DNA of 64,000 bases from Trueperaceae bacterium (GCA_034520945.1 JAXHNB010000005.1:576001-640000), one strand, 5' to 3'. Shown: positions 26,691-56,052, counted from the stretch's first letter. Notes: generated by a model not told the origin, from the letters alone. Numbers and translations are program-made.

Positions 26691-26764
26691 CTACTGGCGA
26701 GGATCGTGCGCAGACCACGTCATCGATCGATTGGGCGCTTTACGATGGATCGATCGAAGGGAGC

Positions 26765-26974
26765 ATGATGGAGACCGTGAAGATCTCACCCAAGTTCCAG
26801 GTCGTCATCCCTAAGCGCATCCGTGAAGCGTTGACGCTCGAGCCCGGGCAGTACCTCGACATGGTCGTCGTGGACGGGCGGATCGAGATGATCCCAGTTC
26901 CGTCGCTGAAGGAGGCGCGCGGATTCCTCCACGGCATCGACACCAGCGTGCCTCGCGACGAAGACCGGGTATGA
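26765..26974 (+). CDS. AbrB/MazE-type antitoxin
   Basis: KISPKFQVVIPKRIREAL. Confidence 0.9.
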   Translation: MMETVKISPKFQVVIPKRIREALTLEPGQYLDMVVVDGRIEMIPVPSLKEARGFLHGIDTSVPRDEDRV

Positions 26975-31176: not shown

Positions 31177-32410
31177 ATGCCGACCTATCTGACCCCGGGC
31201 GTGTACGTCGAAGAGGTATCGGGCGGCGCACGCCCCATCGAGCGGGTGGGCACCAGCACCGCGGGATTCGTCGGCGTGCCCATGGGGGCACCGCACCCCG
31301 CGACGAGGCCATGGCCGTCAACGACTGGACCGCGTTCCAGAAGGCGTACGTCGGTGAGGCCACGGGCCCCAGCACGCCCCTGGTGCTGGCGGTGCACGGG
31401 TTCTTCCTCAACGGCGGGGGGCGCTGCTACGTCGCACCCGTCGGCACGTCCGACGCCGTCGCCGGCGGCGGGCAGGGCCTCGACCTGCTGGAGAGCATCG
31501 ACGAGATCGCCATCGTGACGGCCCCCGGCTACGCCGACGCCGCCAGTTACGAGGCGTTGCTGAGCCACTGCGAGAAGCTTGGCGACCGCGTCGCGATCCT
31601 CGACCCCCCGAGGCCGTCAAGCGGCTCGACGCGTTGACCAAGGTCGCCACCGCCCGCCGGGGCTCGGCCTCGGCCAGCGCGTCGGGCGAGGACGACGACA
31701 CCAGCGGCGCGTCGGGCGGCTCGGGCGGTTCGAGCCGCAATCAAGGGTTGCGGCCACGGCAGTCCGATGGCGGCTTCGGGGCGTTCTACTTCCCCGCGTG
31801 TGGGTCCGCGATCCGTTGGCGCCCAACGAAACGGTCGTCTGCGCCCCTCGGGCCACCTGGCCGGCATCTGGTCCCGCAGCGACGCGGCGCGCGGCGTGCA
31901 CAAGGCGCCCGCCAACGAGCCGGTGCGCGGCGCCCTCAACGTGACCTACCGCCTCACCAAGGAGGAGCAGGGCGTGCTGAACCCCGCGGGCGTCAACTGC
32001 ATCCGCTTCTTCCCGCGCCAGGGGATCCGTGTGTGGGGCGCGCGCACCGTGGCGGATTCCGCCAGCGAGTGGCGCTACCTGAACGTGCGGCGCCTGTTCA
32101 ACATGGTCGAGGAGTCCATCGCCAACTCCACCCGCTGGGTGGTGTTCGAACCGAACGACCGCACGTTGTGGAAATCGATCACGCGCGACATCGGCGCGTT
32201 CCTGACGATGCTGTGGCGGGACGGCGCCCTCGCGGGCGCGTCGCCGGAGGAGGCGTTCTTCGTGAAGTGCGACGACGAGACCAACCCCCAAGAGGTGATC
32301 GACGCCGGGCAGGTCGTCACCGTCATCGGCATCGCGCCGGTCAAGCCGGCCGAGTTCGTGATCTTCCGCATCGGCCAGAGCGCGGGCGAACCGAAATCGC
32401 TTCGGCGTGA
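31177..32410 (+). CDS. Contractile tail sheath protein (several frameshifts)
   Basis: YLTPGVYVEEV, GFFLNGG, GVHKAPANE, RVWGART, YLNVRRL, VFEPND, APVKPAEFV. Confidence 0.93.
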
Positions 32411-32443: not shown

Positions 32444-32907
32444 ATGCCCAGACGAAGCCACCGCCGAAGCGCGCCAGAGTGGACGGATCGATCCGTACCG
32501 CGCGTACAACTTCAAGCTCGAGATCCAGGGCGTGACGCGCGGGCACTTCACCGAGTGCGCCGGCCTGAAGATGCGCGTCCACCCCATCCGCTACCGCGAG
32601 GGCGGCCTCGCCCAGGCGACCCGGGCGTTGCCCGGCGCCGTCGACTACGGCGAGGTGACCCTCCGCTACGGCCTGACGCAATCCACCGACCTGTGGGACT
32701 GGTTCATGACCGCGGTCCGCGGTCGCGTCGAGCGCCGCAACGTGTCCGTTCTGATGCTGTCGCCCGACGGCGTCGACGAGGTGCTGCGCTGGAACCTGGT
32801 GGACGCCTGGCCCTGCCAGTGGGAGGGTGCCCCGTTGGACGCGCATGGGCCGCGAAGCGGCGATCGAAACGCTGAACCTCGTCTTCGAGTCGTTGGACCG
32901 GAGCTAG
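32444..32907 (+). CDS. T4 gp19-like tail tube protein (frameshifted)
   Basis: DPYRAYNFKLEI, YREGG, VTLRYG, WNLVDAWP, AIETLNLVFE. Confidence 0.92.
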
Positions 32908-32910
32908 GCG

Positions 32911-33991
32911 GTGCGGGCGCGCCACTCGGTCCTGAGGTGGCTGTACGCGGCCTTGGCGTCGCTGCGGTCGTTGCTGGGCCGCGTCCTGCGACGCTTGGAG
33001 CAGGAACTGATGGAGCCGCCGCCGGTCGTGTTCGAGCCGGGCGAGGACCCGGCGACCCCGCATCGTCCGCAGGGGCCGCCCTCCCGGCCGCCCGAGCATT
33101 GGCTGCGCACGGTCCGCGAGCGCGCGCCCTACCTGCTGCGCGACGACGCGGGGGCACGGGGCTCGACCCGCAGCAGCGCACGTCCGTCCGCGACGAAGCC
33201 GCCGGATGGCCGCCACCACCGACCGCACCGTCCGCACAGCGCCGCACGGACGGTGCCGAACCGCCCGGGGCGACGCCCGGCGACACGACGCGTCCTGCAC
33301 GCCCGTGGGGCGACGACCTGTACCGCCGGCGGCACTTCCGGCCCGTACCGGCACCCGGGACGGCGCAACCGTCGGACCCGTCCCGGCAGGGTGAGGCGCC
33401 GCCGCCCGACAGCGCGGACGGGCCCAGCGACGCGGGCGCACCCGCCGACCATGCCGGCACCCACGTGCAGGACGCGCAGTCCAATCGCCCGTGGCACGTG
33501 GACCACCTGGACGCGCCGGAAGCACCGGTGGACGCGCAACGCATGGCGACCGACGCTACCTCCGCGTCGTCGGAGCCGCACCCGGACGCAGCGGACGCGA
33601 CGCCGCGCGGGACGGGTGCGTACCGGCGCCTCGAGCCGCTACAGGACGCCACCTCCGGTCCGAACGACGAAGAGGCCGCCGCCGAACACGAGGTCCACTC
33701 GGACGCACGGACCGCAATCCCGTGGGACGCGACCGTGTGGGCGATGGACGACGCAGACTCGCTGGCGCGGCCCGACCACGGGTGGCTCGACGCTCCAGCG
33801 GGGGGCCGGCGGGTGCAGCCGGAACCGTATGCGCACGCCATCGTCCACCCCATGGCGGACCCGTGGCCGCCCCTCCCACCGTCCGCGCCCGCAGTCGAAG
33901 CGACCGAACCGGTCGTGCGCCGCACCTGGGACCCGCGCGCCGGCAGCAGCGCGTGGCCCGCGAGCAGGAGGGACGCACATGGAACGGGTGA
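32911..33991 (+). CDS. Pro/Asp-rich, probably disordered hypothetical protein (frameshifted)
   Basis: Fills the operon gap; GPPSRPPEHWLRTVRERAPYLL ... DPWPPLP. Confidence 0.4.
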
Positions 33992-34746
33992 CGTTCCTCG
34001 TCGAGGCGACCGGGCAGCGCCTGGGGTGCCTCTTGAACCCCGCCACCTTGACGCTGACGCGGCGTGCGGGCGTGCGGTCACGCAGCGGCGCGGCAGGCGC
34101 CATCGCCAGCCGCGGCCTCAGCGACGATCCGCTCATCGACGTCGGGGGCGGCGTGACCGAACTCGAATTGGATCTCCTCTTCGACGTCGGCGTGGCCGGA
34201 TCGACCGTCGTCAGCCTCGACGTTCGCGACCTGACCCGGCCGCTGTGGGACCTGGCCGAGACCCACGCCCGCCTGGAAGGCGGCCGGCCGCCGGTGGTGC
34301 AGTTCTTCTGGGGCGAACGCGAGGGGTTTCCCGGCGTGGTGCTGGCGGTGGCGGAACGGTTGGAACGCTTCGACGCCGAGGGCGTGGCGGGCCGGTCCTG
34401 GCTGCGGATGCGCCTCCGCCGCATGGCGCACCCAGGCGGTCCGCGCGACCGCAGCGGCACCGACCCGCTGGACGGCATCCGCACCGCCACCCGCGACGGG
34501 GCGGGCGGCGACGGAACCGTGGTGATGGGACCGCTGGCCGGCGGCGCAGCAGGCGCGGGCAATGAGGGAGAGCGACCCGTCGCGGGCGTCAGCCGACTCG
34601 ACGCCGTCGCCGCGCTGCACTTCGGCGACGCCACCCTGTGGCGATGGATCGCGGAGGCCAACGCCCTCGACGACCCGGCCCGCGTCGACCCCGACACGCG
34701 CCTGCGCCTTCCCTCCCTGCGGCCGGGGGGCGAGGAGCGACCGTGA
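33979..34746 (+). CDS. CIS tube-initiator / LysM-like baseplate protein (Afp7-like)
   Basis: LLNPATL, LLFD, PPVVQFFWG, ERFDAEG, RLDAVAALHFGDATLWRWIAEAN. Confidence 0.8.
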   Translation: MERVTFLVEATGQRLGCLLNPATLTLTRRAGVRSRSGAAGAIASRGLSDDPLIDVGGGVTELELDLLFDVGVAGSTVVSLDVRDLTRPLWDLAETHARLEGGRPPVVQFFWGEREGFPGVVLAVAERLERFDAEGVAGRSWLRMRLRRMAHPGGPRDRSGTDPLDGIRTATRDGAGGDGTVVMGPLAGGAAGAGNEGERPVAGVSRLDAVAALHFGDATLWRWIAEANALDDPARVDPDTRLRLPSLRPGGEERP

Positions 34747-36227
34747 GCGTCCCCGCAGCGCTTCCCCGCGCCGAGATACGGCTGGCCGGCCGGCCGCTGG
34801 AGGACGAGGCGGCGGCAACGGTGAGCGGCCTGCGGATCCGGCAGGTGCTGAATGTGCCCACCCTGTGCGAAATCACCCTTACCGACCCGCCCGCCCACCT
34901 CATGGACGACCCGCGGCTGCAGCCCGATCAGGGCGTGCGGGTGGGCTTCGCGCAGGACGGCGCACCGGCGTTCGACGGCCGGCTGGTCGCCGTCGAGCAC
35001 GCCTTCCACGGCGCGGCCGGCCGGCGGATGCACCTCCGGGCGTACGACCGGCTCCACCAGCTCCGCCGCAGCCGCCACCTGCGGGTCCTTGCCGAGCCGA
35101 CCCTGCACGCGTTGGCACAGGCCCTGGCCGGACCCGCCGGCCTGCGGGTCGAAGGCGGCGAGGACGCGGAGCTGCCGAGCCAGTCGATTCAGCACCGGCA
35201 GTCCGACCTGCAGTTCCTCGTCGATCACGCGGGACGCTGCGGCTACTACCTGGCGTGCGAGGGCGACACGCTGCGCCTGATCCGCCTGGACGCCGCCGCG
35301 CCGCCGCTCGAGCTGGACCGGGACGCGGGCCGCTGGGAGGCGCGCTTCGAGCGGACCGTCGACGGCGACGCCGCCGCGACGGAAACCGCCGGGTGGGACG
35401 CCGGTACGCTGGAACGCCGTGCAGGACGGTGGACGCCGAACGCCATCGGCCGACGGGGCGCCGACGCTGTGGCGGACCAACCGGGTGCTGCGCAGCGGCC
35501 GTGAACAGACCCAGGACGCCCGCGCCGAGATGGAACGGCGCGACGCCGGCCGGCTGGTGATCTGGGCCACCGGCCCGGGCGACGCCCGAATCCGGCCCGG
35601 CCAGGCGGTGCGGCTGCACGGCTTCGGCGCGGCGCTGCACGAGGCGCAGGCCGTCACGGACGCCGAGCACACCCTGGACGAGCGGGCGGGCTACCTCACC
35701 GAGTTCAGCACCGACCCGCCGCGCCTCCAGGTTCCGCCCGAACCGATGGAGGTCACCGTCGCGCGCGTCGTCGACAGCGACGACCCTGTCGGCACCGGCC
35801 GCGTCCGCGTGGCGTTGGAGGCGTTCGGCGACGTCACCACCGGCTGGTTGCCGGTGATGATCGCCGGCGCCGGGGCGGACAAGGGGTTGACGATCTATCC
35901 CGAGGCGGACGACGTGGTGCTGGTGCTGCTGTGCGGGACCGATCCCTCCGCCGGCATCGTGCTGGGCGGCCTGTACGGGACCCGCCCCAGCGCCGACGCC
36001 GACATCGCCGGTCGCCGCCCGCGGCCGTACGCGCTGCGCACCCCGGCGGCCAGCGGCTGCGCCTGGACGACCACGGCCAGCTGGTGCGCCTGGAGAACGC
36101 CGACGGCAGCTACCTGGAGATGAGCGCAGACGAGGTGGTGCTGCACGCCGCCCGTGACCTCCGCATCGAAGCGCCGGGCCGCACCCTCACCCTCGGGGCC
36201 GACGCGATCGACATGAGGAGTCGCTAG
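34743..36227 (+). CDS. VgrG-like hub/spike (gpD + gpV domains), frameshifted
   Basis: QHRQSDLQFL, DPVGTGRVRV, GAGADKG..PEADDVVLV, VLGGLY. Confidence 0.85.
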
Positions 36228-36563
36228 GTGAAGCTGTTGAGCGAGGACGCCCGCCTGGCGTGCCGCCACCGCGGCGTGATCATTGTGCCGCCTTCCCAGG
36301 GGCTGGTCACCGTGAACGGACGCCGCGTGCTGGTCGAGGACGACCCGGTCGGCCAGCGCATCGCGGGGTGCCCCAACGCCGGACCGACGATCAAGCCGTG
36401 CACCACCACCCTGAAGGTGCAGGACGGCTACGCCGCACTGCTGCGCATCGACGGGCGTCGCGCCTGCCTGGACGCCGTCACCGGCCTCACGGACGGCACG
36501 CCGCCCGGTACCGTCGCCTACCTGGTCGATACACCTGGCCAGGGCTGGGTCGAGGTGCAGGCG
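36228..36563 (+). CDS. PAAR/DUF4280-like spike tip (read in frame with gp25 here)
   Basis: LACRHRG..IAGCPN..KPCTT Cys/His pattern, located after the VgrG-like gene. Confidence 0.6.
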
Positions 36564-37040
36564 ATGACCGCGCCGCCCGATCGGGCCTGGCGCTTCGTCC
36601 ACCCAGCGGTGGACGTGCCCGCCAGCATCGCGGAACGGACGCCCGGCCTGCACGTCGATGCGACCGGCGGCATCGACGTGGTCGAGGGGGACGCCTGCGT
36701 GCGCCAGTCGATCCTCCTGCTCCTGTCCACCGCCCGCGGCGAGCGGGTCATGCGGCCTGACTACGGCTGCGACCTGAACCGGTTGGCCTTCGCCCCCAAC
36801 GACGCCACCACCGCCGGCCTGGCCATCCACTACGTTCGCAGCGCCGTGGCGCGGTGGGAGCCGCGCGCGCGGGTGCTGCGCGTCGATGCCGGCCGCCGCC
36901 TCTTTCACGGTCCCGGCCTCGGCGCGGTGGACGATCCCGAAGCCCGCCTGGACGTGGTGCTGGACTACCAGGTGCGGGACAGCGGCCACGCCGACCGCCT
37001 GGCGCTGAGCCTGGACTTGGCGGAAGGATCGATCGCGTGA
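36564..37040 (+). CDS. gp25/GPW baseplate protein
   Basis: VRQSILLLLSTARGERVMRPDYGC, WEPR. Confidence 0.92.
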   Translation: MTAPPDRAWRFVHPAVDVPASIAERTPGLHVDATGGIDVVEGDACVRQSILLLLSTARGERVMRPDYGCDLNRLAFAPNDATTAGLAIHYVRSAVARWEPRARVLRVDAGRRLFHGPGLGAVDDPEARLDVVLDYQVRDSGHADRLALSLDLAEGSIA

Positions 37041-39604
37041 GCCTGCGCCCCCCGGACCTCGACGACCGCGACTTCCAGGCGCTGATGCGCGAGGCGCTGG
37101 CCCGCATCCAGGACGCGAGCCCGCGCTGGACCGACCACTCGCCCAGCGATCCCGGCATCGTGCTGTTGGACGCCTTCGCCTACCTGACCGAGATGATGAT
37201 CTACCGCCTGAACCGGGTGCCGGAGAAGGCGTACGTCGAGTTCCTCCGCCTGATGGGCGTGACGCTGCGCCCGCCGGCGGCGGCCAAGGTCCGGTTGCGG
37301 CTGACGGGGGACGCCGAGGGGACGGACGCGCGGACGGTGCCGCGCGGCACCCGCGTCACGATCGGCCAGGGACTGGACCAACGGGACGCACCGGTGTTCG
37401 TCACCACCGAGGACGCTACCGTGGCGCCCGGTGCGACGGCGCAGGTCACGGCCCTGCACGCCGAGACGGTCGCGGCGGAACGGGTGGGGACCGGTACCGG
37501 CCGGCCGGGCCTGAGCCTCACGCTGTCGCGCCCGCCCATCGTGGCGCCCAGCGGCGACGGGGCCGACCTGGTGATCGGCGTCGAGGCTGGCGAGGAGGAG
37601 GCAGGCGGCGACGCGGGGCGCGCGCCCGCCATTCGGCACGACGACCGCACCTACCGAGTCTGGCGGGAGGTCGTCAGCTTCGCGGAAGCCCACGAGGACC
37701 GCTTCGTCTACCTGGCCGACCGCGCGTCGGGCCGCATTACCTTCGCCCCCGCCGTGCACGAGAGCGAGGCGGGCCGCACCGTCGCAGGCGAAGCGACCGC
37801 CTTGGCGGAGGTCGTGCCGGCCGGCCGCGAGGTGCGGGCCTGGTACCGCCGCGGCGGGGGCCGCGACGGCAACGTGCGCGCCGGCGCGCTGATGGCCTTC
37901 GTGGACGACGTGCCCGGGGTGGCGGTCACCAACCCCGAAGCGGCCACCGGCGGGCGCGACGCGAGATCGTTGCCCAACGCGCTGCAGCGCGGTCCCCAAG
38001 CGCTTCACGCGCTGGAGCAGGCCGTCACTGCGGGACTTCGAACGAATCGCCCAGCGCGCCGGCGCGGTGCGACGCGCCAAGGCGTTCGCGGAGGCCGCCC
38101 TGTGGCGACACGGCGTGCCCGGCACCGTCCACCTGGTGCTGGTGCCCGACCTCGACCCGGGGCGCACCGCCCAAAGCGGCGCGACGCTGGACGCCCTGAC
38201 GGCCGCCCAGACCGGGCAGGCCCTCAGTGACGTGCAGAACGACGTCGACGCCCGCAGGCCGCTCGGCACGCGCTGCCGGGTGGCGTGGGCCCGCTACAAG
38301 CCGCTCCGGATCGGCGCGCGGGTGGTGGTGTTCGCGGAGGAGGACGCCGCTGCGGTCGGCACGCGCCTGGCGGGGCGCTTGAACGAACTGCTGGACCCGC
38401 TGCGCGCCCGGGACTTCGGCGAGCCCATGCGGGCGTCCGACGTCTACGACGTGCTGCTGCGCGAGCCGGGCGTTCGCTACGCCGACCACGTGCACCTCGA
38501 GGTGGACAGCGCCCCCGACGCCGAGGTGCACGCCGTCGCGACCGACCGTTTCCAGCCCGGCACCTGGTACGCCGGCGCCGGCGGCGCGACCTACCGGACG
38601 CTGGACGACGCCGACGGTTGGGAGCGCGTGCGGGTGGACGAGGCGTTCACGGTGGCCGGCGTCTTCCCGCACCCGTCGCGGCCGGGCATGGTGGCGGTGC
38701 TGCTGCAGGACGAACCGCAGGGCCGCTGGCGGCTGGCGGTGAGCGATGACTGCGGCGAGTCGTGGCGCAGCAACGAGGCCGAACTCAGCTTCCGCGTCTA
38801 CGACGTCGCCTGGCTGGACCGGACCGGCGACGCGGTGCTCCTTCTCGCGACGCGCCAGGGACTGTTCCAGCTTCCGCTGTCCGACACGTCGTTGACGCCG
38901 GTTCAGGTGCCCGTCGATCCGGACAAGACCGACCGCGGCTTCTACGCTGTCGCCGTGTCGGCCGGCGTGCGTGGCCGCACGTTCGTGGCGGTCGCTGCGG
39001 ACCAGTTGGGCGGGGTATTCCTGTCCGATCAGGGCGGCGGGGACGGCACCTTCCGGGCGTTCGGCCTGGACGGGACGGACGTGCGCGTCCTGCAGATGCA
39101 CGCCGACGGGCCCCGCCTGTACCTGTGGGCCGGCGCCGCCGCGGTCGGGGGCGAGCCGGGCGACGGCTGCTTCCGCGGCGCGAGCTGCGCCTCGGTGAGG
39201 ACGCCCCTTCCCAGTGGCGGCAGTACCGCCAGGGCTGGCGCGGCGGCAGTTGCTACCAACTGGCCGTCGCCGGCGGGGCGCTGTACGCCGCCACGCACGC
39301 AGGGGGCGCGCTGCGGCTGGACGCCGGCAGCCGGGAGGCCGCCTGGGAGGGGCCGCCCCTGGACTGCGGGCTGCCGCTCCGCGACGCCGAACGGTTGCTG
39401 CACCCGGTCCGCGCCGTCGCCGCGCGGGGCGGCGACGCCCCCCGCCTGCTGGCGGGCGGGCACGCCGGCGTCCACCGCAGCACGGATCAGGGCCGGACCT
39501 GGCAGCCCGTGTCGCGACGAACCTACGCGGACAAGGTGACGGTGCCGCCGGCGTGGCTGTTCTGCCCCGGCGCCGCACAAGGTCGAGGTGGTGCGCGACG
39601 ATGA
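37037..39604 (+). CDS. Baseplate J-like protein with a C-terminal beta-propeller-like extension (frameshifted)
   Basis: PDLDDRDF, WTDHSPSDPG, YRLNRVP, YRRGGG..GNV, NPEAATGG; then SDDCGESW and STDQGRTW Asp-box-like motifs. Confidence 0.85.
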
Positions 39605-40160
39605 AGTCTGAGCGCATCCTCGCGTTGCTGCCGCAGGCGTTCCAGTCCTCCGCCTGGAGGGGTCCCCGCTGCTGGGCCTCCTGGCGGCCATGGAGGGGAT
39701 GCACGCACCAAGCGAAGCCGTTCTGGACGACCTGGACGGCTACTTCGACCCGCGGCGCGCCCGCCTGCGCTCGGCGGCCTACCTGGCGTCCTGGCTTGAT
39801 CTCGACCGCATCGTGCGCGCCGCGGGGCCGCACGGCCGGAGCGCCGCCGTGGCACTGCCGACCGGACGCCTGCGCGAACTGACCGCCGCTGCCGCCGACC
39901 TGTCGCGTTGGCGGGGTACCGCCTACGGCCTGGCGCGCTTCCTGGAGGTCGCGACCGGCGTGCCCGGCTTCGAGGTGGACGACCACGTGCGCGACGCTTA
40001 CGGCGACGTTCGACCGTTCGACGTCGAGGTGCGTGTGCCGGCCGGCGCCGCCGGCCAGCGGGCCGCTGATCGAGACCATCGTCGCCTCGGAGAAGCCCGC
40101 CTACGCGACGAGCACCCTGCGCCTTTTGGAGGGCGAAGGCAGAGGCGACCCCGCGGGTGA
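39601..40160 (+). CDS. P2 gpI-like baseplate/tail protein (frameshifted)
   Basis: LLPQAFQ, YFDP, YLASWL, RWRGTAYGLARFL, EKPAY. Confidence 0.8.
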
Positions 40161-40175: not shown

Positions 40176-42100
40176 ATGAGGACCCCGCTGAGCGTCACGG
40201 TCACGCCGGCCTCGCTCACGCTTTCGCGTGTCGGGCCGCGGATCGAGGCGGACGAGACCACCTTCACCGTCACCAACACGGGCGCGCGACGCGTGACCGC
40301 CCGGGCGGCGCTGGAGCCGCTGGGCGGGGCCGAGCCGGGCTGGCTGTCGCTGCGGGGCGAGGCGCAGCACGACTTCGCACCCAACGCGACGCACGCGTTC
40401 ACGGTGCGGGTGGCGCCACCCCCGGACGCCCCGGCGGGCCGGCACGCCTTCCGCCTGAACGTCGTCGACGTGCACCATTCGGACGAGGGCGAGGTGGAGG
40501 GCCCGGAGGTGGCGTTCGAGGTTCCCCCCGCCCCGACGGAGGACGGGCCGACGATGCCGCCGATGGCTGTGGATGGCGATCGCGGCGGTCGTGCTGCTCG
40601 GCGGTGCGGCGGCGCTCGCCGTCGCGTTCTGGCCGTTCGGGTCGGTCAACGAGGCGCCGAGCCTGGCCGACGTCGAGAACGTCGCGCACCCTGCAGGGCG
40701 AAGCGGCCGAGGTGTCCCTCGCCATCCGCGACGAAGATCCGGGCACCGTCGCCGTCGCGGTCCGCTCCAGCGACGACACCCTCGTGGCGGCGGACGACCT
40801 CGAGGTGGCCGGCGAGGGCGCGGACCGCCTGCTGCGCGTCACCCCCGGCGCGGTTCGGGGTGGGGCGCGCCGTCCTCACCGCGATCGGTGGCGCGGACGC
40901 CGAGGGCCTGGAGGGCAGCACCTCGTTCGAGGTCGAGGTGCGCCGGCCGTTCGACGTCCAACTGCCGGCGCTGAGCGCCAGCGACGGCAGCGAGGGGTCG
41001 TTCTACGGGACGTCGGTCGCGCTGGACGGCGATCACGCCGTCGTCGGTGCCTCGTTCGACGGCGGCGTCGCGGAGGCGGCGGGAGCCGCCTACCTGTACC
41101 GGCTGGACGACGGCGTCTGGACCGAGTGGAGAAGCTCACCGCGAGCGATGCAGACGAGCTGGACCACTTCGGCATGAGCGTTGCGCTGGACGGCGATCAC
41201 GCCATGATCGCAGCCCGCTTCGACGCAGCGGTGCCGCCGACGACGCGCGGTGCCGACTCGACGCCTTCCAGCGGCAGGGCGACACCTGGCGCGAGGTCGC
41301 CAAGCTCACCGCCCGCGACGCCGAGGAGGACACGCTGTTCGGCTACCGACGTGGCCCTGGACGGGGATCGGGTCCTGATCGGCGCCCTCGACGCACGCAG
41401 GCCGGCGATGACGCCGGCTCGGCCTACCTCTTCGAGCGCGATGGCGACGGTGGCGGCAGGCGCAGAAGCTCACCGCCAGCGATGCCGCAGCCGGCGACCG
41501 CTTCGGGTCGGACGTGGCGCTGGACGGCGACATTGCGCTCATCGGCGCCCTCAGCCACGACGGGGCTGCCGAAGATGCGGGTGCGGCGTACGCGTTCCAG
41601 CGCCAGGGCGACGCCTTTCGCGAGGTCGCCAAGCTCACCGCCGACGAGGCGCGCGAGACGCGTCGTTCGGTGGGCCGGTCGCGCTGGACGGCGACACGGC
41701 GCTCATCGCCGCCTCGGGCGAAGAGCGCGAGGGCGAGGGGACGGGCGCCGCGTACGTCTTCGAGAGGAACGGCGACGCATGGCGCGAAGTCGCGAAGCTC
41801 ACCGCGCGCGACGCCCGCGCCGGGCATTTCTTCGGCAACTCCGTGGCGCTCGACGGCGACTACGCCCTCGGTGAACGGCGGCGCGTTCCTCGCGGAGGAT
41901 CCGGGCTCCTCGGTGTACGTCTACCGGCGCGACGACGACACCTGGCGGGCGCTCCGCCAACTCACGGCGCGCGAGGTCGGCGCCGGCGGCATTTCGGGAT
42001 AGCCATCGCGCTCGACGGTCCACGGCTCCTGCTGAGCGCGCCGTCCGACGACATGGGTGGAGACGAGGCGGTGGGAGCGGTGTATGCGTTCCAGGACTAG
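40176..42100 (+). CDS. Single-pass membrane protein 1: shared N-domain + TM + Ig-like + FG-GAP repeats (frameshifted)
   Basis: Repeats of KLTAxD..FGxSVALDGDxAxxGA..GAAYxF. Confidence 0.7.
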
Positions 42101-42130
42101 ACATTCATGCCCCTTCACGGAGGTGGCCTG

Positions 42131-43272
42131 ATGGCTGCTTCGTTCGCGATCACGGCGTCGCCGGCGTCGTTGGCGTTGTCGCGTGGGAGGGACGGCAAGG
42201 TCGTGCCGCAGGAGGTCACGTTCGCGGTGACGAATGCCGGGGTTCGCGTACGGTGACGGGCCGGGCTGTGGTGGAGCCACTGGGTTCCGGTGGCGTCGGG
42301 CTGGTTGGAGGTGTTGGGGGAGCGGGAGCGGGATTTCGAGGCGAACGGGACGCCATACCTTTTCCGTGCGGGTGGCGCCGCCGGCGGGCGCGCCTCCTGG
42401 GCGGCACCGGTTTCGTTTGAACATGGTGGACGTGCACCATCCGGACGAGGGCGAGGTGGAGGGGCCGGAGGTGGGGTTCGAAGGTGCCGCCGGCCCCGGC
42501 GGAGGACGGTGCCGTCGTTGCCGCGCTGGCTGTGGATGCGCCATCGCGGTGCTGGTGGTGGCAGGCGGCGTGATCGCGGCCGTCCTGGTGCTGGGCAACG
42601 ACCCGCCCGACGCCGACGCCGGCGGCGATCGTGAGGTCGAGGTGGGAACGACCGTCACGCTCGACGGCAGCACGTCCAGCGATCCGGACGGGGACGCGGT
42701 GGCGTTCTCATGGGCGTTGGAACGGCGACCCGACGGCAGCGGCTGCGGCCCTCGCGGACGCGCGACACGCCCTCGCCAAGCTTCACGCCGGACGTCGCCG
42801 GCACGTACGTGGCGGCCTTGACGGTGTCCGACGGGTCGCGCCCGGCCAGCGATAGCATGAGCGTCACGGCGCGCGAACCGCCCAACGAACCCCGGGCCTG
42901 TCGCCCATTGCCCAGCAGCGTACAGAGGAGGGGGCGCCGCTCGAGGTCGCGTTCGAGGTCGCCGACGAAACCCCGAGAACGATGACGATCGAGGCGTCGG
43001 CCAGCGACCCGGCCCTGCTGCCCGCTGGCAGCGTCGAGGTCCTCGGCGACGGTGCCGAGCGGTCGCTGCGCATCACGCCACCGGCAGGCGCAGCCGGAAG
43101 CACGGAAATCACCGTGGTGGCGCGGGACGCAGCTGGATTGGAGGACAGCGTCACGTTCGTGCTTGAGGTCACGCCGCGGCCCCTTTCCCGGGAATCTGGG
43201 ACGACGCCCCGCGGGACGACGCCCTCTGGGGACCACGACCACGCCGCTCGTAAAGCAAGGAGGCCCGAGTGA
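42131..43272 (+). CDS. Single-pass membrane protein 2: shared N-domain + TM + PKD + Ig-like (frameshifted)
   Basis: NDPPDADAGGDREVEVGTTVTLDGSTSSDPDGD; FTPDVAGTYVAALTVSDG. Confidence 0.7.
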
Positions 43273-44260
43273 ACCCGAACACCCGCAAGGTTCTACGCCT
43301 GATCGTCCCGGTCGCCGTTCTCGGCATCTGGGCGTTCGCCATCGACCTTCCGCATCTGTTCTCACCGGAAACGACGATCAGCTCCAGCGAAGTCAACGAG
43401 AACTTCCAGGTGCTGGCCGGCGCGATCACGACCTTCGAAGACGCCATCGCGATCGACGACGATGGGAACGTCGGCATCGGCACCGGCAGCTCCGGCTTCC
43501 AGCTCGACGTGGTGGGCGGGATGCTCGCCACCGACGACGACCGTGCCATCATCGGCCGCCAGGGCACCAGATCCTGCGCTGGAACGTACGGTGTCGGCGG
43601 ATGCGCGACCACGGGGAACGGTGTCGTCGGTCGCGCCGGTGGCGGCATTGGCGTGCTCGGCGTCAGCGACACGCGCGGCGTGGTCGGCACCCAAGGGGAG
43701 ACGTCGTGCGCCGGCAGCTACGCCGTGGGCGGGTGCGGCACCACGGAGCGACGGCATCTACGGCCGGAGCCGCGACGGACGTGCAGGCGTGTTCGATGGA
43801 ACGGTGCAAATCAACGGCAACCTCAGCGTGTCGGGCACCAAGAGCTTCCGCATCGACCATCCTCTCGATCCCGACAACCGGTACCTGCACCACTTCGCTG
43901 TCGAATCCAACGAGGTGCTGAACGTCTACAGCGGCACCACGAGCCTGGATGCGGACGGCACGGCCGTCGTGCGATGCTCGGACTACTTCGAAGCGCTGAA
44001 CACGGACGTTCGTTACTGAGCTCGCCCATCGGCAGGCCATGCCGAACTTGCACGTGTCGGAGAAGTTCTCGCAAGGGCGCTTCGCCGTAGCCGAGGGACA
44101 GCCCGGTGCGGACGTCTCTTGGCAAGTCACGGCGGTCCGCAACGACGCAGGCCTGCGGGGCGGCAGGCTGCCCGTGGAGTTGGACAAGCCCGTCTCAGAA
44201 CGCGGCAGCTCCGAGGTGGACGGCCGTGGTACGGAGCCTGTCGCGAGGCGCGCGCCGTGA
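43269..44260 (+). CDS. Secreted fibre-like protein (frameshifted)
   Basis: Signal-peptide-like N-terminus, SSEVNENF, GNVGIGT, Gly-rich repeats, KSFRIDHPLDPDNRYLHHFAVES. Confidence 0.6.
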
Positions 44261-44291
44261 GGCCGTCGCCCGGCCGACGAGGTACGGCCTG

Positions 44292-45460
44292 ATGGCGGCT
44301 TCGTTCGCGGTCACGGCGTCGCCGGCGTCGTTGGCGTTGTCGCGTGGGAAGGGCGGCGCGGTCGTGGCGCAGGAGGTCACGTTCGCGGTGACGACGATAC
44401 GGGCCGCGCGACGGTGACCGGGTCGGGCCGCGGTGGAGCCGCTCGGTTCGGTGGGGGTCGGCGTGGTTGGAGGTGTTGGGGATCGGGAGCGGGATTTCGA
44501 GGCCAACGGCACGCACACCTTCACCGTGCGGGTCGCGCCGCCCGCGGACGCGCACGCCGGGCGGGCATCGTTTTCGCTTGAACGTGGTGGACGTGCATCG
44601 TCCCGACGAGGGCGAAGTGGAGGGACCCGAGGTGGATTCGAGGTGCCGCCGGCCCTTGTCGACGACGGGCCGGCGGTGCCGCGCTGGCTGTGGATCGCCA
44701 TCGCGGCGGTGGTGTTGGTCGGGGGTGCGGCGGCGCTGGCCGTGGCGTTCTGGCCGTTCGGTCCGAGCGAACGCGAGGTGCCCGGTCTGGCTGGCATGAC
44801 CGTCGCCGAGGCGACGGAGACGGCCGAAGGGGCCGGCTTCACGCTCGAGGTCGCCGACGCGCCGCGCCCCAGCGACGAGGTCGGGGCCGGCAGGGTCGCC
44901 GCGCAAGAGCCGGAGGCGGAGACGCTGGCCGAGCCGGGCAGCCCGGTCGTCGTGACGCTGGCTGGCGTACCGGACGTCGTGGGCATGGAGCGCGCCGACG
45001 CCGAACGCGCCCTGCGGGATGCGGGCCTCGCCGTGACGGTGGCGGGCCTGAGGGTCACCGGCTCGCACGCGCCGCGGCCGGGTCGTCTCGCGACCCGGGC
45101 CCGTCCGACGACGTCGAGCCCGGCGCGGAGGTCACCCTTCGTCGTCGAGGGGGTCGATGTGCCCCCATGGTGGGCGAGCACATCGACGACGCGCTCCGCA
45201 CGCTGGAGGGACCGGGCTGTCGTTCGAGCTGAACTCGGACTTCCGGAGCCGCCGTCCGGCCGGGACCGTCACCAGGCAGTCGATCGATGGCGGCGCAGCC
45301 GTGGATCCGGGAACCACCGTCTCGCTCTCCGTGGCAGCCACCTTCGGTGGCGGGTACCTGGAGGAGATCGACCCGGCCCTTCTCCGCCGCTTGAACGTTC
45401 CCCTTGGTCCCGGCAATGGACCGATTCCGCCGTTCGACTTCGAGCCTGGTCACGCGCTGA
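44292..45460 (+). CDS. Single-pass membrane protein 3: shared N-domain + TM + PASTA repeats (frameshifted; end approximate)
   Basis: VPGLAGMTVAEA..GRVAAQEP; VPDVVGMERADAERALRDAGL. Confidence 0.7.
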
Positions 45461-47154: not shown

Positions 47155-47574
47155 TCACTTGTCCAGCGGGACGAGCGCGCTCGCGCACGCCCATCGGGGC
47201 GACGTGGGCGACGCGCATTGGCGTGCCTGAGCGCCCTTCGCCCGCACCGGCGTGAACACGTTCAGCGTCTCCGTCGGCCCGGGCGCGTCCTCGGGCACGT
47301 ACGCGGCGTGCGCGATGCCGCCCGGGATCGACAGCACCTCGCCCGCCGCCAGGTGCGTCTCGCCGTCGTCGAACACGAACACCAGCGCGCCGGCCTGCAC
47401 CAGGGTGAGCTGCTCGGCGGGGTGGGCGTGTCGCGGAAACGTCGTGCCCGGCTCGTAGCGGTACGCGATCAGCTCCAGGCGCTCGCCGGTCATGCGGCGG
47501 CGGGTCACGCCGCTGCGGGGTGTCTCGCCCGGCAGTTCGTCCAGGCGGACCTTCCGGGGCCGCGGTGCGTTCAC
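47155..47574 (-). CDS. Cupin-domain protein (3' end uncertain)
   Basis: FPRHAHPAEQ..IPGGIAH. Confidence 0.85.
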   Translation of the reverse strand: MNAPRPRKVRLDELPGETPRSGVTRRRMTGERLELIAYRYEPGTTFPRHAHPAEQLTLVQAGALVFVFDDGETHLAAGEVLSIPGGIAHAAYVPEDAPGPTETLNVFTPVRAKGAQARQCASPTSPRWACASALVPLDK

Positions 47575-48927
47575 GCCGCCACCTCGCCCGTCACGCGCTC
47601 CAGCGCCGCCGCCATGCCCTGCACGAGCACCTCCACCTCGTCCTCCGTGATCACGAACGGCGGCGCCAGCAGTGCGTGATCGCCACGCCGGCCGTCCACG
47701 TGCCCGCCGCCCTGATAGACGTACACGCCTTCGTCCAGGCAGGCGCGGGCGAAGCGGCCGCGCACGTCGGCTTCGGCCGGGAACGGCGTCATGCCGTCTC
47801 GTTCCGCGACGAACTCGACGCCCAGCAACAGTCCGCGGCCACGGATGTGACCGACGTGCGGGTGGTCGCCGAGGGTCTCCTGCAGGCGGCGTTTCAGGAG
47901 GGCGCCCAGCTCGGTGACGCGGGGGAGGAGCCCCTCGCGTTCGATTACGTCGATGACGTGACTGCCGACGGCGCAGCTCAGCGGGTTGCCGGCGAAGGTG
48001 TGGCCGTGCGGGAAGCCGCCCGGCGCGCGGCGCACCGCCTGGTCGTGCGCGTCGGGCACCAGCACCGCGCCGAGGGGCGCGTAGCCGGCGGAGAGGCCCT
48101 TGGCGGTGGTGATCATGTCCGGCGTCACGCCGGTGTGCTGCATCGCCCACCAGGCGGCCGGAGCGGCCGTTGCCGCTCATCACCTCGTCCGCGATGAACA
48201 GCACGTCGTGCCGGTCGCAGATCTCGCGGATGCGGGGCCAGTACCGCTCCGGCGGGTGCCGGCCGGGGGCGGAGGAGCCGACGACCGGTTCGGCGATGAA
48301 CGCCGCCACGTTCTCGGGCCCGACGTCCTGCAGACGCGTCTCCAGGTCGCTGGCGCACTCGACGTTGCAGCTGCTCGGTTCCTTGCCGAAGGGGCAGCGC
48401 GCGCACGAGGTCGGCGCGATCATCGGTTGCGCCTGCATCATCGGCGCGAACGGGTCGCGCCGTTGCGGGTGGCCCGACACGGACAGGGCGCCGAGGGTGG
48501 CGCCGTGGTAGCTGGTGCGGCGCGTCACCACCAGCGTCTTGTGCTCGAACCCGCGGGCGCGCTGCACCTGGCGGGCCAACTTGAGCGCCGTCTCGGTCGC
48601 CTCGCTGCCGCCGGAGGTGAACAGCACGCGGTCCAGGCCGGCGGGGGCGCGGGCGGCCAGGCGTTCGGCCAGCGCTTCGGCTTCGGGGGTGACGAACTTG
48701 CTGGGGTGCGCGAACGCCAGCCGGGACGCCTGCTGGGCCATCAGCGCCGCGATGTCCTGGCGGCCGTGCCCCAGCGAGGCGACGGCGGCGCCGGCGGCGG
48801 CGTCCAGGTAGCGGCGGCCGTGCTCATCGATCAGCCAGGTGCCCTCGCCGCGCACGATCCGGATGGGCGCGTGGGCGGGGTCGCGCAGGAACAGGGGGGA
48901 GGCGCGGGTGTCGGTCGGGGTCGTCAT
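47571..48927 (-). CDS. Class III aminotransferase (frameshift near 48150)
   Basis: [43 protein letters not shown]. Confidence 0.9.
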
Positions 48928-51817: not shown

Positions 51818-52006
51818 GCCTCAGCCTAGCACCTGCCTGGCGCGATCTGGCACGCGGGCACGTCGTGCCAGATCCCGTCCGGCGGGCAGCGCGGCCGACA
51901 TCACCAAAACGCCGTCCCCGACGAGCGAAGCGGTGGTCGTGCCGCGCGCCGCGTGCTACACTCCTGGCAATTCACACCTGCCGCCAAGGCAACGAAGGAG
52001 GACGAC

Positions 52007-53107
<1,101 letters not shown>

Positions 53108-53127
53108 CGCGCCCTCCCGGCGCGCAC

Positions 53128-53160
53128 GGGCCCCGGCGACCGTACGCCGGGGCCCTGTTC
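53128..53160 (+). terminator. Hairpin after the ABC ATPase gene
   Basis: GGGCCCCGGCG / CGCCGGGGCCC. Confidence 0.55.
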
Positions 53161-53276
53161 GTGGGCGCCCCGCGGGCCGCCCACGACCCCGCCGCCCCGA
53201 CCGGCGCATACGACCCGCCCCGCCCCGTCGGCAACGACGCCGAGCCCCCGCCGGCGCCTCGGCTATGCTGAGCCGC

Positions 53277-55238
53277 ATGGTCCTCGCGGCGCTCCGGCAG
53301 GTCGACAAGCACTACGGCGAGCAGACCGTGTTGGGCGGCGCCACGCTCGAGATGCGCGGCGGCGACCGCATCGCCCTGATCGGCCGCAACGGCGCCGGCA
53401 AGAGCACCATCCTCCGCCTCCTGGACGGACGCGAACGGCCCGACGCCGGCGAGGCGTGGACCCGCGACGACGCCGTCGTGTCTCTCCTCACCCAGGACCC
53501 CGAGTTCCCGCCCGGCCACACCGTCCGCGAGGTGTGCGAGGCTGCGTTTCAGGACCTGGACGAGATGGAGGCCCGCCTGCAGGCGCTCGAGGCGGACGGC
53601 CTGGACGACCCCGACACCTTCGCGCGCTGGGAGGTGCAGCACGCCACCTTCGAACGGCGCGGCGGCTACAGGCGCCGCGCCCGCCGCGACATGGTGCTGC
53701 ACGCCCTGGCGTTCACGGGACGAGAGCACGAGGACGCCGGCCGCCTCAGCGGCGGCGAAAAGACCCGCCTGGCGCTGGCCCGCCTGCTGATGCGCCAACC
53801 CGACGTGCTGCTGCTGGACGAGCCCACCAACCACCTCGACGTCGAGATGCGCACCTGGCTGGAGAGCTACCTGGCGCACTACCCCGGCGCCGCCCTGATC
53901 GTCAGTCACGACCGCGCCTTCCTGGACGGCGCCTGCGACCAGACCGCCGAGGTCGGCCGCGGCCGCCTGCACGTCCGCCCCGGCAACCCCACCCGCTACC
54001 GCCAGGAACGCGCCGAGCAGGAACGGATCGAGGCCCGCACCCGCCACAACCAACACAAGGAGGAGGCCCGCCTGGAGGGCGCCGCTGCGAAGATGCGCAA
54101 GTGGGCGGGACAGAACGCCAAGCTGATGCGGCGCGCCAAATCGATGGAGACCCGGCTGGAACGCCACCGCCAGGGCATGCTGGACGACGCCGAACGCCCC
54201 GGCCGCACCGTCCGCTTCACCTTCCCCTGTGACCCGCGCGGCACCACCGTGCTGCAAGCCCACCACCTCTCCAAACGCTTCGGCGCCGAGGCGCTGTTCC
54301 AGGACGTCGCCGTCACCGTCCGCAACGGCGAACGCATCGCCGTCACCGGCCCCAACGGGGCGGGGAAGACCACCTTCCTGCGCGTCCTGCTGGGCGAACT
54401 GCCCAGCGACGACCCCCGCGCCCGCATCGACTACGGCACGCACGTGCGCGTCGGGTACTACGACCAGGAGCTCCGCGGCGTCGACCCCGAGTTCACCCTG
54501 ATCGAGGAGCTGATCCGCCTGGTCGGCGACCGCGAAGGGCACGACCTGCTCGGCAAGTTCATGTTCCCCTTCGGCGCGCAGTACAAGAAGGTCCGCGACC
54601 TCTCCGGCGGCGAGCGCGCGCGCCTGGCGCTGCTGAAGCTCACCCTCGGCCAGCACGACGTGCTGGTCCTCGACGAGCCCACCAACCACCTGGACGTCGA
54701 GATGATCGAAGCGCTCGAAGCCGCCCTGGACGTTTTCGAAGGCACCCTGCTGCTGGTCAGCCACGACCGCCGCTTCGTCTCCTCGCTGGCGACCCGCGTG
54801 TGGGAGATCCAGGACGGGCAGTTCGAGGACTACGAGGGCGACTGGTCGTTCTACGAGCGCAAGGCGCAGGAGCGGCGGACCGCCCTGCAAGAGGCGCAGG
54901 ACGCCTCCACCCCGCCGCCCGAGGCCGAGGCGCCCGCCCGGCACCAGACCCGCGCGGCCCGCGCGGCCGACGCCGCCGTCGACGCCCGCTTCCGCGACCT
55001 GAGCCCCTGGAAGCTGGAACGCGAGTTGGCGCAGCTGGAGGACCGCGTCGCAACGCTGGAATCCGAGCTGGCCGAGCTGCAGGGCCGCCTGGCCGATCCC
55101 GCCATGCACATTGGCGAGCACCTGGCGGAGTTGGGCCGCGCCCACGCCCGCACCGAGTCGGACCTGCTGGCCGCCATGGAGGCGTGGGAGGCGGCCGGCA
55201 AGGCGCTGGAGACCAAGCGCGCCGCCCGCGGGCAGTGA
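53277..55238 (+). CDS. ABC-F family ATPase (Uup-like)
   Basis: Two NBDs with LSGGE and DEPTNHLD; C-terminal coiled coil. Confidence 0.93.
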   Translation: MVLAALRQVDKHYGEQTVLGGATLEMRGGDRIALIGRNGAGKSTILRLLDGRERPDAGEAWTRDDAVVSLLTQDPEFPPGHTVREVCEAAFQDLDEMEARLQALEADGLDDPDTFARWEVQHATFERRGGYRRRARRDMVLHALAFTGREHEDAGRLSGGEKTRLALARLLMRQPDVLLLDEPTNHLDVEMRTWLESYLAHYPGAALIVSHDRAFLDGACDQTAEVGRGRLHVRPGNPTRYRQERAEQERIEARTRHNQHKEEARLEGAAAKMRKWAGQNAKLMRRAKSMETRLERHRQGMLDDAERPGRTVRFTFPCDPRGTTVLQAHHLSKRFGAEALFQDVAVTVRNGERIAVTGPNGAGKTTFLRVLLGELPSDDPRARIDYGTHVRVGYYDQELRGVDPEFTLIEELIRLVGDREGHDLLGKFMFPFGAQYKKVRDLSGGERARLALLKLTLGQHDVLVLDEPTNHLDVEMIEALEAALDVFEGTLLLVSHDRRFVSSLATRVWEIQDGQFEDYEGDWSFYERKAQERRTALQEAQDASTPPPEAEAPARHQTRAARAADAAVDARFRDLSPWKLERELAQLEDRVATLESELAELQGRLADPAMHIGEHLAELGRAHARTESDLLAAMEAWEAAGKALETKRAARGQ

Positions 55239-55293
55239 ACGGCCCGGTGGTACACTCGCTGCCACCGACCGATTTCCGTGCCGAGGAGGCCCC

Positions 55294-56052
55294 ATGCAAC
55301 GAGTCCGTTACCGAAGCTTCGACGGCGTCCACTGGGGCGAGGTGGAGGGCGGCCGCGTGCACCAGCTCACCGCCATGCTGGGCCGCCGTAGCGGCGCGGT
55401 CGTGCCCCTCACCGACGTGTCGCTGGTGGCGCCCTGCGACCCGCGCACCATCGTGTGCGTCGGCAAGAACTACGCCAGCCACGTCACCGAAATGGGCGGG
55501 GACGCCAGCGACCTACCCAGTGATCCGGGCCTGTTCCTGAAAGGCCTCAACGCCCTGGCCGGCCCCGGCGATCCCGTCCCCTACCCGCACTGGACGCAGA
55601 ACCTGCACTACGAGGGCGAGCTGGCCGTGGTCATCGCCCGCACCATGCGCAACGTCAGCGCCGCCGACGCGCTGGAGCACGTGCTGGGCTACACCTGCGC
55701 GCTGGACGTCACCGCCCGCGACAAGCAACGCAGCGACCTGCAGTGGGTGCGCGCCAAGAGCGCCGACGGGTTCTGCCCCGTCGGGCCGTGGATCGAGACC
55801 GACCTCGACCCCACCGACGTGCGCGTCCGCACGGTCATCAACGGCGAGACCCGGCAGGACGGGCACACACGCGACCTGATCTTCCCCGTCGCCGAGGTGC
55901 TGTCGTACGTCAGCGGCTTCATGACGCTCGTCCCCGGCGACCTGGTCCTTACCGGCACGCCTGAGGGGGTCGGCCCCCTCCGCGTCGGCGACGAGGTCCG
56001 GGTGCACGTCGGCGGCGTCGGCGACCTGACCGCTCTGGTCGAGGCGGCGTGA
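55294..56052 (+). CDS. Fumarylacetoacetate hydrolase family protein
   Basis: CVGKNY, YEGELAVVI, LTGTPEGVG. Confidence 0.93.
   Translation: MQRVRYRSFDGVHWGEVEGGRVHQLTAMLGRRSGAVVPLTDVSLVAPCDPRTIVCVGKNYASHVTEMGGDASDLPSDPGLFLKGLNALAGPGDPVPYPHWTQNLHYEGELAVVIARTMRNVSAADALEHVLGYTCALDVTARDKQRSDLQWVRAKSADGFCPVGPWIETDLDPTDVRVRTVINGETRQDGHTRDLIFPVAEVLSYVSGFMTLVPGDLVLTGTPEGVGPLRVGDEVRVHVGGVGDLTALVEAA

Follow-up and report, generated by a model that had tools for sequence, protein, structure and literature searches.

The window analysed here is a stretch of 64,000 nucleotides (G000:C5:576001-640000) from the 3.47-Mb genome of a Trueperaceae bacterium (ca. 72% G+C). On its plus strand, from approximately 30.4 to 40.2 kb, it carries an operon for a contractile injection system (CIS). 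Directly after the Cis11 and Cis12 genes of this compact operon stand three genes, referred to below as genes 1 to 3, each of which specifies an N-terminal domain of about 120 residues (the N-domain), a transmembrane (TM) helix and an outer part that differs from gene to gene. We present an analysis of these genes and their relatives, which by their sequences appear to form a large, widespread and previously unnamed family of single-pass membrane proteins, and which may link the CIS to the envelope of the cell that produces it. The features of the cluster are as follows:

40176..42100 (+), gene 1: N-domain at 40176-40550, TM helix at 40564-40638, immunoglobulin (Ig)-like stretch at approximately 40690-40950, then FG-GAP_2 repeats to the end
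42131..43272 (+), gene 2: N-domain, TM helix at 42527-42596, PKD_4, Big_9-like Ig domain; many frame changes
43269..44258 (+), interposed gene, outside the family: N-terminal signal-anchor and Gly-rich repeats, in three frames
44292..45458 (+), gene 3: N-domain, TM helix at 44685-44762, three PASTA repeats

When the N-domain of gene 1 (40176-40550) was used as the query against its own genome only these three places were recovered, gene 3 with an E value of 2e-24 and 49% identity and gene 2 in two pieces (1.3e-18 and 3.6e-7). Together with reading in three frames, this search bears out the starts at 40176, 42131 and 44292 and the shared domain given in a preliminary description of the locus. 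The hydrophobic WLW-AIA helix, which had also been described as common to all three, follows each copy of the domain within about 10-15 residues. The Pfam scan of genes 1 to 3, made on stop-to-stop pieces, agrees with the divergent outer parts (Ig plus FG-GAP, PKD plus Ig, and PASTA) already noted: FG-GAP_2 was matched in four pieces of gene 1 (1.2e-35, 4e-11, 5.7e-18 and 2.4e-4), PKD_4 (4.7e-8) and Big_9 (7.5e-6) in gene 2, and PASTA (5.3e-19 and 2.3e-5) in gene 3. The Ig-like stretch behind the TM helix of gene 1 matches the Big_9 region of gene 2 via the relatives P0003 and P0004. As had been stated, there is no signal peptide: none of the three has an N-terminal hydrophobic segment and the proteins start directly with the N-domain. 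Gene 3 is collinear with an intact relative, P0002 (387 amino acids, three PASTA repeats); from this protein and from a 1-nt indel at 45447 in sequencing run X1, the end of gene 3 most likely lies near 45458. The preliminary description omitted that none of the three genes is intact and that genes 2 and 3 are separated by an unrelated gene (43269-44258). This interposed gene has a Gly-rich, fibre-like part, paired Cys in its repeat region and a lower G+C content, and gave no Pfam match, its C-terminal part included. As a conserved partner of the family it was rejected, no homologue being present in the 51 other loci described below.

Orthologues of the CIS proteins were taken for comparison from G015, a better-assembled relative. 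The genes identified in the operon upstream are:

31183..32378 (+), CIS sheath gene, frameshifted: Pfam Phage_sheath_1 and Phage_sheath_1C; 70% identity to the G015 sheath by tblastn over 31845-32378
32502..32849 (+), inner tube gene, gp19 type: PF06841, E 7.7e-28; genome search G000:C5:608502-608849, E 4.4e-29
33979..34713 (+), second tube-like gene, CIS_tube family: PF19266, E 3.7e-7; 40% identity to the G015 open reading frame (ORF) L008:5428-6156
35758..35976 (+), spike OB domain (Phage_base_V) inside the spike gene: PF04717, E 6.2e-16, on ORF 35281-36120
36540..37028 (+), gp25-like baseplate wedge gene: PF04965, E 8.6e-21; tblastn from G015
37004..39571 (+), Cis11 or Baseplate J-like gene with two frameshifts: PF04865 in two pieces; three collinear G015 tblastn pieces
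39612..40157 (+), small Cis12-like gene (P2 gpI-like core), frameshifted at both ends: weak Tail_P2_I match, E 0.009

The G015 orthologue of the Cis11 gene matches TIGR02243 with 269 bits, which exceeds the cut-off, and that of the Cis12-like gene matches TIGR02242 with 57.7 bits (cut-off 51.85) and, weakly, CIS12_fam, at core positions 476-571 of 715 only. In 32 other loci a homologue of the Cis12-like gene directly precedes the first N-domain gene. The Cis11 homologue (37004-39571, plus strand; L008:8469-11210 in G015) has a long C-terminal region of Asp-box-like (SxDxGxxW-like) repeats, with a weak match (36 bits) to the NCBIfam glycosylhydrolase-family model NF045728; this region may be a propeller on the baseplate's periphery.

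All three genes of the cluster are non-intact ORFs as assembled. Tracking of the G+C content at third codon positions (GC3), coupled with three-frame reading, revealed about ten frame changes in gene 1 and about six within 350 bp of the gene 3 N-domain. Housekeeping genes are frameshifted too, e.g. an aminotransferase at 47155-48927 on the minus strand, and overlapping ORF pieces of high GC3 occur throughout the window, e.g. at 6016-8456 and 51830-56049 (both on the plus strand). This window-wide fragmentation indicates an assembly with many indel errors, the density of which peaks at 40.2-45.5 kb. Four sequencing runs (X1-X4), available as low-depth public contigs that cover the stretch in short pieces, were used for indels only. 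Relative to the window, contigs of X1-X3 carry 1-nt indels at 40683 (in two studies), 42287, 42353, 43748 and 45447; the first four coincide with frame switches, and each of these puts the downstream frame back in register. Several switches are compensating pairs within 30 bp, and GC3 remains high in the true frame across the breaks. Among close relatives with intact genes are P0004 (616 amino acids, seven FG-GAP_2 stretches, N-domain 66% identical) and P0003 (427 amino acids), both found on the same contigs, as well as P0002, P0271 and P0272. Since four of the 1-nt indels in the contigs restore the frame and the close relatives are intact, most of the breaks in genes 1 to 3 are probably consensus errors of the assembly.

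A phmmer search with the N-domain against 1.84 billion representative proteins gave 1313 cluster representatives at E ≤ 1e-3 and 469 at E ≤ 1e-10. The family occurs in Acidobacteriota, Verrucomicrobiota, Chloroflexota, Myxococcota, Pseudomonadota, Actinomycetota and Deinococcota. In the best 150 representatives the domain almost always occupies approximately residues 1-120. Of these, 148 were examined as relatives, P0001 (the window's own ORF) and the 2110-residue P0143 being left out, and 140 possess a hydrophobic 19-mer just after the domain. Four of the 150 (P0043, P0112, P0148 and P0150) are variants with four TM helices behind it; the genes L059:6135-8027 and L060:8086-9975 likewise specify an N-domain followed by four TM helices in place of a single helix and outer domain.

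No Pfam, NCBIfam or PADLOC model covers the N-domain, and the only matches are sub-threshold ones to the Ig-like models NPCBM_assoc, FixG_C and choice_anch_D. The window copy scores 18.5 bits against NPCBM_assoc (cut-off 24.4), with a few relatives reaching 25-27 bits, and the domain scores 25 bits against choice_anch_D (cut-off 45). An AlphaFold2 model built from 60 sequences is a nine-strand Ig-like sandwich (pLDDT 92.8, pTM 0.83). Its Foldseek matches (best E 1e-6) include the ASH/PapD-like CEP192, the FixG-related 2r39, MSP domains and GH123 N-domains, and its top VIA-align matches are WxLIP and RbmA (Z 10-11.6). The N-domain is likely to share a fold class with NPCBM_assoc and CARDB-like Ig domains. 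Among the listed Foldseek and VIA-align matches there is no CIS part, only generic Ig-like, PapD, MSP and FixG-type domains, and a profile of the family searched against all PDB chains at E ≤ 10 returned PASTA chains and short TM peptides but no CIS chain.

The association with CIS loci is close. In the 364 genomes of the window's phylum, which is probably Deinococcota since the match in G113 and that on a plasmid of Deinococcus sp. AJ005 almost agree in their coordinates, the gp19 tube family is found in 67 and the N-domain in 11. In each of the 11 a distance of 7.3-8.7 kb separates the tube gene from the N-domain gene downstream of it, and the two share contig and strand. Seven of these carriers belong to one genus and have a one-tube CIS, while the other tube-positive genomes of that genus mostly have two tube matches (in tandem where both are shown), none with the family. 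For other phyla, a pattern scan of species genomes with A2, a 17-row alignment of close relatives, yielded 51 loci, the majority from Acidobacteriota and the remainder from Verrucomicrobiae, Chloroflexota, Myxococcota, Pseudomonadota, Actinomycetota and Thermoanaerobaculia. The context of each was established by repeated rounds of local search in which CIS proteins of G015 and of the window served as queries:

CIS genes (Cis11, Cis12, gp25, spike, tube or sheath) upstream on the same strand: 33 of 51 loci
CIS genes downstream: 1 of 51 loci
full flanks without CIS genes within 10 kb: 13 of 51 loci
flank too short to tell: 4 of 51 loci

In most loci the first family gene adjoins the Cis12-like gene or overlaps with it, often with a stop/start overlap. 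Both plasmid matches are CIS-linked as well; they lie on complete plasmids of cultured strains, p96k of Deinococcus sp. AJ005 and a plasmid of Paracoccus sp. MC1862. On both, the gene order is sheath-tube-...-V-gp25-J-'phage tail protein'-'PASTA domain-containing protein', the last being the only name that RefSeq gives to the two family members. The co-occurrence with CIS loci that the preliminary description predicted is thus found in 11 of 11 genomes of the phylum, 34 of 51 loci from other phyla and two of two plasmids. By its genomic context the N-domain is tightly linked to CIS loci, though not exclusively a CIS part. Relatives were absent from 50,697 phage records, and none was found in IMG/VR, where the scan was limited to one peptide pattern.

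The plasmid CIS (L070 and L071) are unusually compact, with some 10-11 genes in about 11 kb and no cap, tape-measure or large AAA+ gene in their annotation. In the Deinococcus plasmid a polytopic membrane protein with an HExxH-like motif is encoded between Cis12 and the family array (L070:12789-13706). Related genes occupy the same place at L037:8686-9900, L046:5649-6893, L062:5985-7064 and L061:3-902 (E 1e-37 to 1e-68), and the window has none; with this protein the fibre slot would have a second conserved membrane component. On both plasmids the family gene is followed by one for a protein of about 165 residues with an N-terminal hydrophobic segment (L070:14897-15400 and L071:15118-15606). 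The Deinococcus copy weakly matches four loci (L021, L027, L028 and L049), and the two plasmid copies gave no mutual match at E ≤ 1e-2.

The topology of the family is best described as N-in/C-out, a prediction that is well supported because several indicators agree. An N-terminal hydrophobic segment was found in none of the 148 relatives, in which Cys occurs at 0.16 per N-domain as against 1.34% of the C-terminal parts, and Lys plus Arg residues flanking the TM helix number 2.01 on the N side versus 1.63 on the C side. The domains on the C-terminal side come from periplasmic or wall families: PASTA was found in 67 of 146 representatives and in 33 of 94 copies from the loci, the others being Laminin_G_3, FG-GAP_2, PKD, PAN, F5_F8_type_C, DUF346, Tectonin, PD40, NHL, CBM_6, META, PG_binding_1 and DUF11. 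Lastly, two fusion proteins (from L048 and L055) have a first TM helix and, after it, an N-domain flanked by a TIR domain and a second TM helix. Judged from these features the N-domain is almost certainly cytoplasmic, as had been assumed from the start.

Twenty-one loci contain at least two full copies and up to five, L037 (4), L038 (5) and L046 (5) having the most. Comparison of 52 pairs of copies from the same locus showed, without exception, a higher conservation of the N-domain than of the outer part (mean identity 0.72 versus 0.19); in an alignment of the family that consists mainly of database representatives, N-domains are about 40% identical to that of the window. The array of L046 illustrates the variation, its outer domains being PASTA plus F5/8C, none, PASTA, three PASTA and four PASTA. 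By such comparisons the family is a modular repertoire in which the inner domain is conserved and the outer domains are swapped.

The TIR fusions, L048:8918-11026 and L055:8795-10405, are both orphans, i.e. away from any CIS, and have the layout TM helix-unknown domain-TIR-N-domain-TM helix-outer part; in relatives the outer part resembles DUF11. The L055 protein is covered to 88-100% by four further database clusters, while some 17 more share only the TIR domain and the part upstream of it. Hundreds of Acidobacteriota proteins have the module of TIR and upstream domain joined to a protein kinase.

We found no description of this family in full-text searches of the literature; supplements, subscription papers and the catalogues of extracellular CIS (Chen 2019, Geller 2021) may list such genes. 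The closest parallels are with two membrane-directed CIS components. CisA (SCO4242) of Streptomyces coelicolor is described as bitopic, with a cytoplasmic N-terminus and the C-terminus outside, and as required for contraction and function (PMC12237407). The preliminary description took recruitment of the CIS to the membrane by CisA as established; the need for CisA in firing stands, but in the portions of that paper available to us membrane recruitment and contact with Cis11 are proposed and not demonstrated, as is the idea that CisA links the cytoplasmic CIS to the membrane and senses a signal via its outer domain (PMC12237407). Like CisA, the family is by computation bitopic and N-in/C-out, is coded directly after the baseplate genes and belongs to a CIS lineage without classical fibres. 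Unlike it, as far as CisA is described there, the cytoplasmic part is a folded 120-residue sandwich (the AlphaFold2 model above) in place of about 285 largely unstructured residues, the outer part varies (PASTA, FG-GAP, PKD, PAN, Laminin_G_3) where CisA conserves a solute-binding-like domain, and there are commonly two to five tandem paralogues in place of a single gene. In the thylakoid-anchored CIS of Anabaena the N-terminus of Cis13 (All3316) is reported to bind the baseplate, and removal of its predicted TM helix (aa 122-154) to free the CIS from the membrane (PMC8894136). The family shares with Cis13 the fibre-slot gene after Cis12 and the position of the helix, at approximately residues 125-145 here. 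Cis13, however, is trimeric and fibre-like with helical stalks and inserts in the thylakoid, and the account in that source mentions no large lumenal domain. We read the family as analogous to both CisA and Cis13 and as a member of neither, its separation from CisA being by description only.

Tethering of a baseplate to the cytoplasmic membrane has been proposed for two further CIS-cluster membrane proteins: Hbor_38620, a putative membrane anchor of haloarchaeal CIS resembling type VI secretion systems (T6SS) (PMC11566945), and SalCis19, a TM hydrolase of the membrane-associated CIS of Salmonella salamae (bioRxiv 10.1101/2025.06.01.657177). The former differs in having six TM helices, a cytoplasmic domain of about 150 residues and a gene upstream of the cluster, and the latter in its signal peptide, three TM helices and periplasmic amidase-like domain; as presented in these sources, neither has the plan of N-domain, one helix and variable ectodomain, nor tandem arrays. 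In the PASTA Ser/Thr kinases (PknB/Stk1/PrkC), as in gene 3, PASTA repeats lie outside directly after a single TM helix, but in the family the kinase domain is absent and the cytoplasmic part is the Ig-like N-domain. Members of the gene 3 type match the kinase model NF033483 partially, in the TM and PASTA region only (32-81 bits, cut-off 450), as well as solved PknB PASTA domains and, on the TM plus PASTA part, PADLOC PD-T4-6; no Pkinase match was found in family members scanned with Pfam. Fibres and receptor-binding proteins of the Afp13/Pvc13 type also follow the baseplate wedge genes and have a conserved N-terminus with shuffled C-terminal binding modules. They differ from the family in its membrane-spanning helix, its outer domains of periplasm or wall type and its lack of relatives in the phage collections searched.

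The mechanism that we propose is as follows. Genes 1 to 3 would encode bitopic inner-membrane proteins in the tail-fibre slot, after Cis11 and the small Cis12, each with a cytoplasmic Ig-like N-domain of about 120 residues, a single TM helix and a variable binder in the wall or periplasm. As "inside-out fibres" they would engage the baseplate periphery of a cytoplasmic CIS through the conserved N-domain, while the outer domains would fix the state of the producing cell's envelope or report on it, PASTA via peptidoglycan precursors or fragments and the lectin-like, propeller and Ig domains via other envelope components. Acting together, these receptors would set the place and time at which the machine is kept at the membrane and fires. 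A conserved cytoplasmic domain, a helix, variable binders and a fixed slot fit a structural or signalling baseplate partner that spans its own membrane, and the precedents of CisA and Cis13 make such a partner plausible; unattached CIS particles inside the cell, reported from Deinococcota (PMC12998442), are a further precedent. PASTA domains bind the cell's own wall material, and their position right behind the helix suggests, by analogy, the plan of a PASTA kinase with the kinase replaced and own wall material as the ligand. Architecture, topology indicators, genetic linkage and modular repertoire were each obtained by computation; the physical contact with the baseplate, the ligands and the triggering of firing we infer. 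That the family links the CIS baseplate to the producer's own envelope has, in our estimation, an even chance of being correct. When Cis11 (residues 480-914) and Cis12 of G015 were co-folded with the N-domain (residues 1-125), the median score was 0.54, and a control with Cis11 replaced gave 0.74, values that speak neither for nor against a contact.

A number of observations weigh against this link between baseplate and envelope. The N-domain is present in only 11 of the 67 tube-positive genomes of the phylum, and 13 of the 47 informative loci in other phyla are orphans among housekeeping genes, far from any CIS. Two of the genomes with orphan loci also have a CIS-linked locus and seven of the eight others have the tube family elsewhere; in the remaining one, G368, no gp19 tube was found. 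The positive-inside bias is modest, Lys plus Arg being higher on the N side in 65 proteins and on the C side in 38. According to the model, the N-domain folds as a generic Ig-like sandwich, to which no solved CIS part is specifically related, and the contact of the domain with a baseplate protein is our own supposition. The TIR fusions raise the prospect that the N-domain may be a general juxtamembrane module and not a dedicated baseplate adaptor. The preliminary description, which saw here a receptor repertoire docking an injection machine to its own membrane, holds in part: linkage, cytoplasmic N-domain and modularity are supported, and docking at the baseplate and triggering by ligands of the outer domains are proposals. 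Finally, the three genes are not intact in this genome, and a hidden Markov model that tracks the reading frame gave 3.6 switches per kb of coding sequence (ordinary gene boundaries included) at 40.2-45.5 kb and 1.76 in the CIS operon, in comparison with 0.4-0.8 elsewhere in the window. Real decay is a minority possibility: the locus would be a decaying pseudogene cluster in which the three genes do nothing in this genome, whatever the family does elsewhere. Besides the raised switch density, the finding that the N-domain (at E ≤ 1e-5) and the tube family are both missing from all ten other genomes of its genus would agree with it. We consider it improbable in view of the frameshifted housekeeping genes, the frame-restoring indels exactly at four switches, the compensating pairs and the GC3 that persists across the breaks.

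The orphan loci and the TIR fusions, the latter with their four near-complete database relatives, also argue for regarding the proteins as general envelope-signal transducers, in which the N-domain would be a juxtamembrane oligomerisation or scaffold module whose output is TIR or regulation of the CIS, with no structural dock. A TM plus PASTA part resembling that of the PASTA kinases suggests a sensor with its kinase replaced, and a generic protein-binding fold of the Ig/MSP/PapD-like kind would serve as well here. We nevertheless hold this account to be rather unlikely: the position of the gene right after Cis12, where stop and start frequently overlap, is conserved in the pattern of a structural partner, N-domains within a locus are 72% identical as against about 40% to the window copy across the family, which fits adaptation to one local partner, and all but one of the eight genomes with only orphan loci still encode a CIS. 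The linkage and topology evidence would also be compatible with a CIS that is anchored at the inner membrane and fires outward in the manner of a T6SS, the outer domains binding the producer's wall or a neighbour. Haloarchaeal and Amoebophilus-type CIS are reported to work so, the former marked by a conserved membrane protein (PMC11566945), and the membrane-associated Salmonella CIS is described as having a TM protein of its own (bioRxiv 10.1101/2025.06.01.657177). Many carriers, however, are diderm (Acidobacteriota, Verrucomicrobiota, Myxococcota, Pseudomonadota), so that outer parts of 100-350 residues would stay periplasmic and could not reach a neighbour; the commonest outer domain, PASTA, binds the cell's own wall material. 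The Deinococcota CIS that have been imaged are described as intracellular, unattached particles, in strains whose carriage of the family is not known (PMC12998442). Outward firing is accordingly an unlikely explanation. Least credible, and to our minds highly improbable, is that these are tail fibres or receptor-binding proteins of released particles, the hydrophobic segment being no anchor in the producer's membrane. The fibre slot after the baseplate genes, the classic combination of conserved N-terminus and variable C-terminus, and a phage tail Collar domain in the relative P0121 would be in keeping with this. It is at odds with a strongly hydrophobic helix of about 20 residues in the same place in nearly all relatives, with the variants with four TM helices and the two TM helices of the TIR fusions, with a Cys contrast that points to two compartments, and with the want of relatives in the phage records and the one-pattern IMG/VR scan. 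Two other candidates were rejected: cargo or effectors, on account of the TM helix and binding modules and with no toxin-like domain in Pfam scans of the relatives, and anti-sigma or transcriptional regulators, given the beta-sandwich cytoplasmic domain, the lack of a sigma factor gene nearby and the presence of up to five copies per operon.

Elsewhere in the window, a MNT/HepT-like pair (Polbeta plus HepT), an IS1595-type transposase fragment and a MazE/PIN pair lie upstream of the CIS (23139-24032, 25633-26490 and 26546-27342, plus strand), a region which is a mobile or toxin-antitoxin neighbourhood. From 11600 to 18800 the G+C content is lower (0.61-0.67) and the frame-tracking model gives nearly no coding signal.

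How cytoplasmic CIS without fibres find the membrane and decide to fire has so far been addressed through single lineage-specific proteins only, namely CisA, the TM helix of Cis13, Hbor_38620 and SalCis19. If the family does link the baseplate to the producer's envelope, it would offer an answer that is both much more widespread and more modular, and would stand out through its breadth, modularity and arrays. A profile of the N-domain would flag both a CIS subtype and its receptors, and the outer domains would form a natural catalogue of sensing domains; the RefSeq name 'PASTA domain-containing protein' hides the part that is conserved. The two cultured plasmid carriers, Deinococcus sp. AJ005 and Paracoccus sp. 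MC1862, hold the whole system of about 11 genes and make it directly testable. More tentatively, it is possible that a widespread compact CIS lineage has turned its fibre slot inside out, with arrays of bitopic receptors that would read the cell's own wall, respond to a lipid II or muropeptide signal (suggested by PASTA as the most frequent outer module) and fire the machine on damage or infection, leading to regulated suicide or abortive infection. The same inner domain, wired to TIR, would couple envelope sensing to cell-death effectors, and the orphan copies would extend the repertoire as orphan VgrG/PAAR islands do for T6SS.

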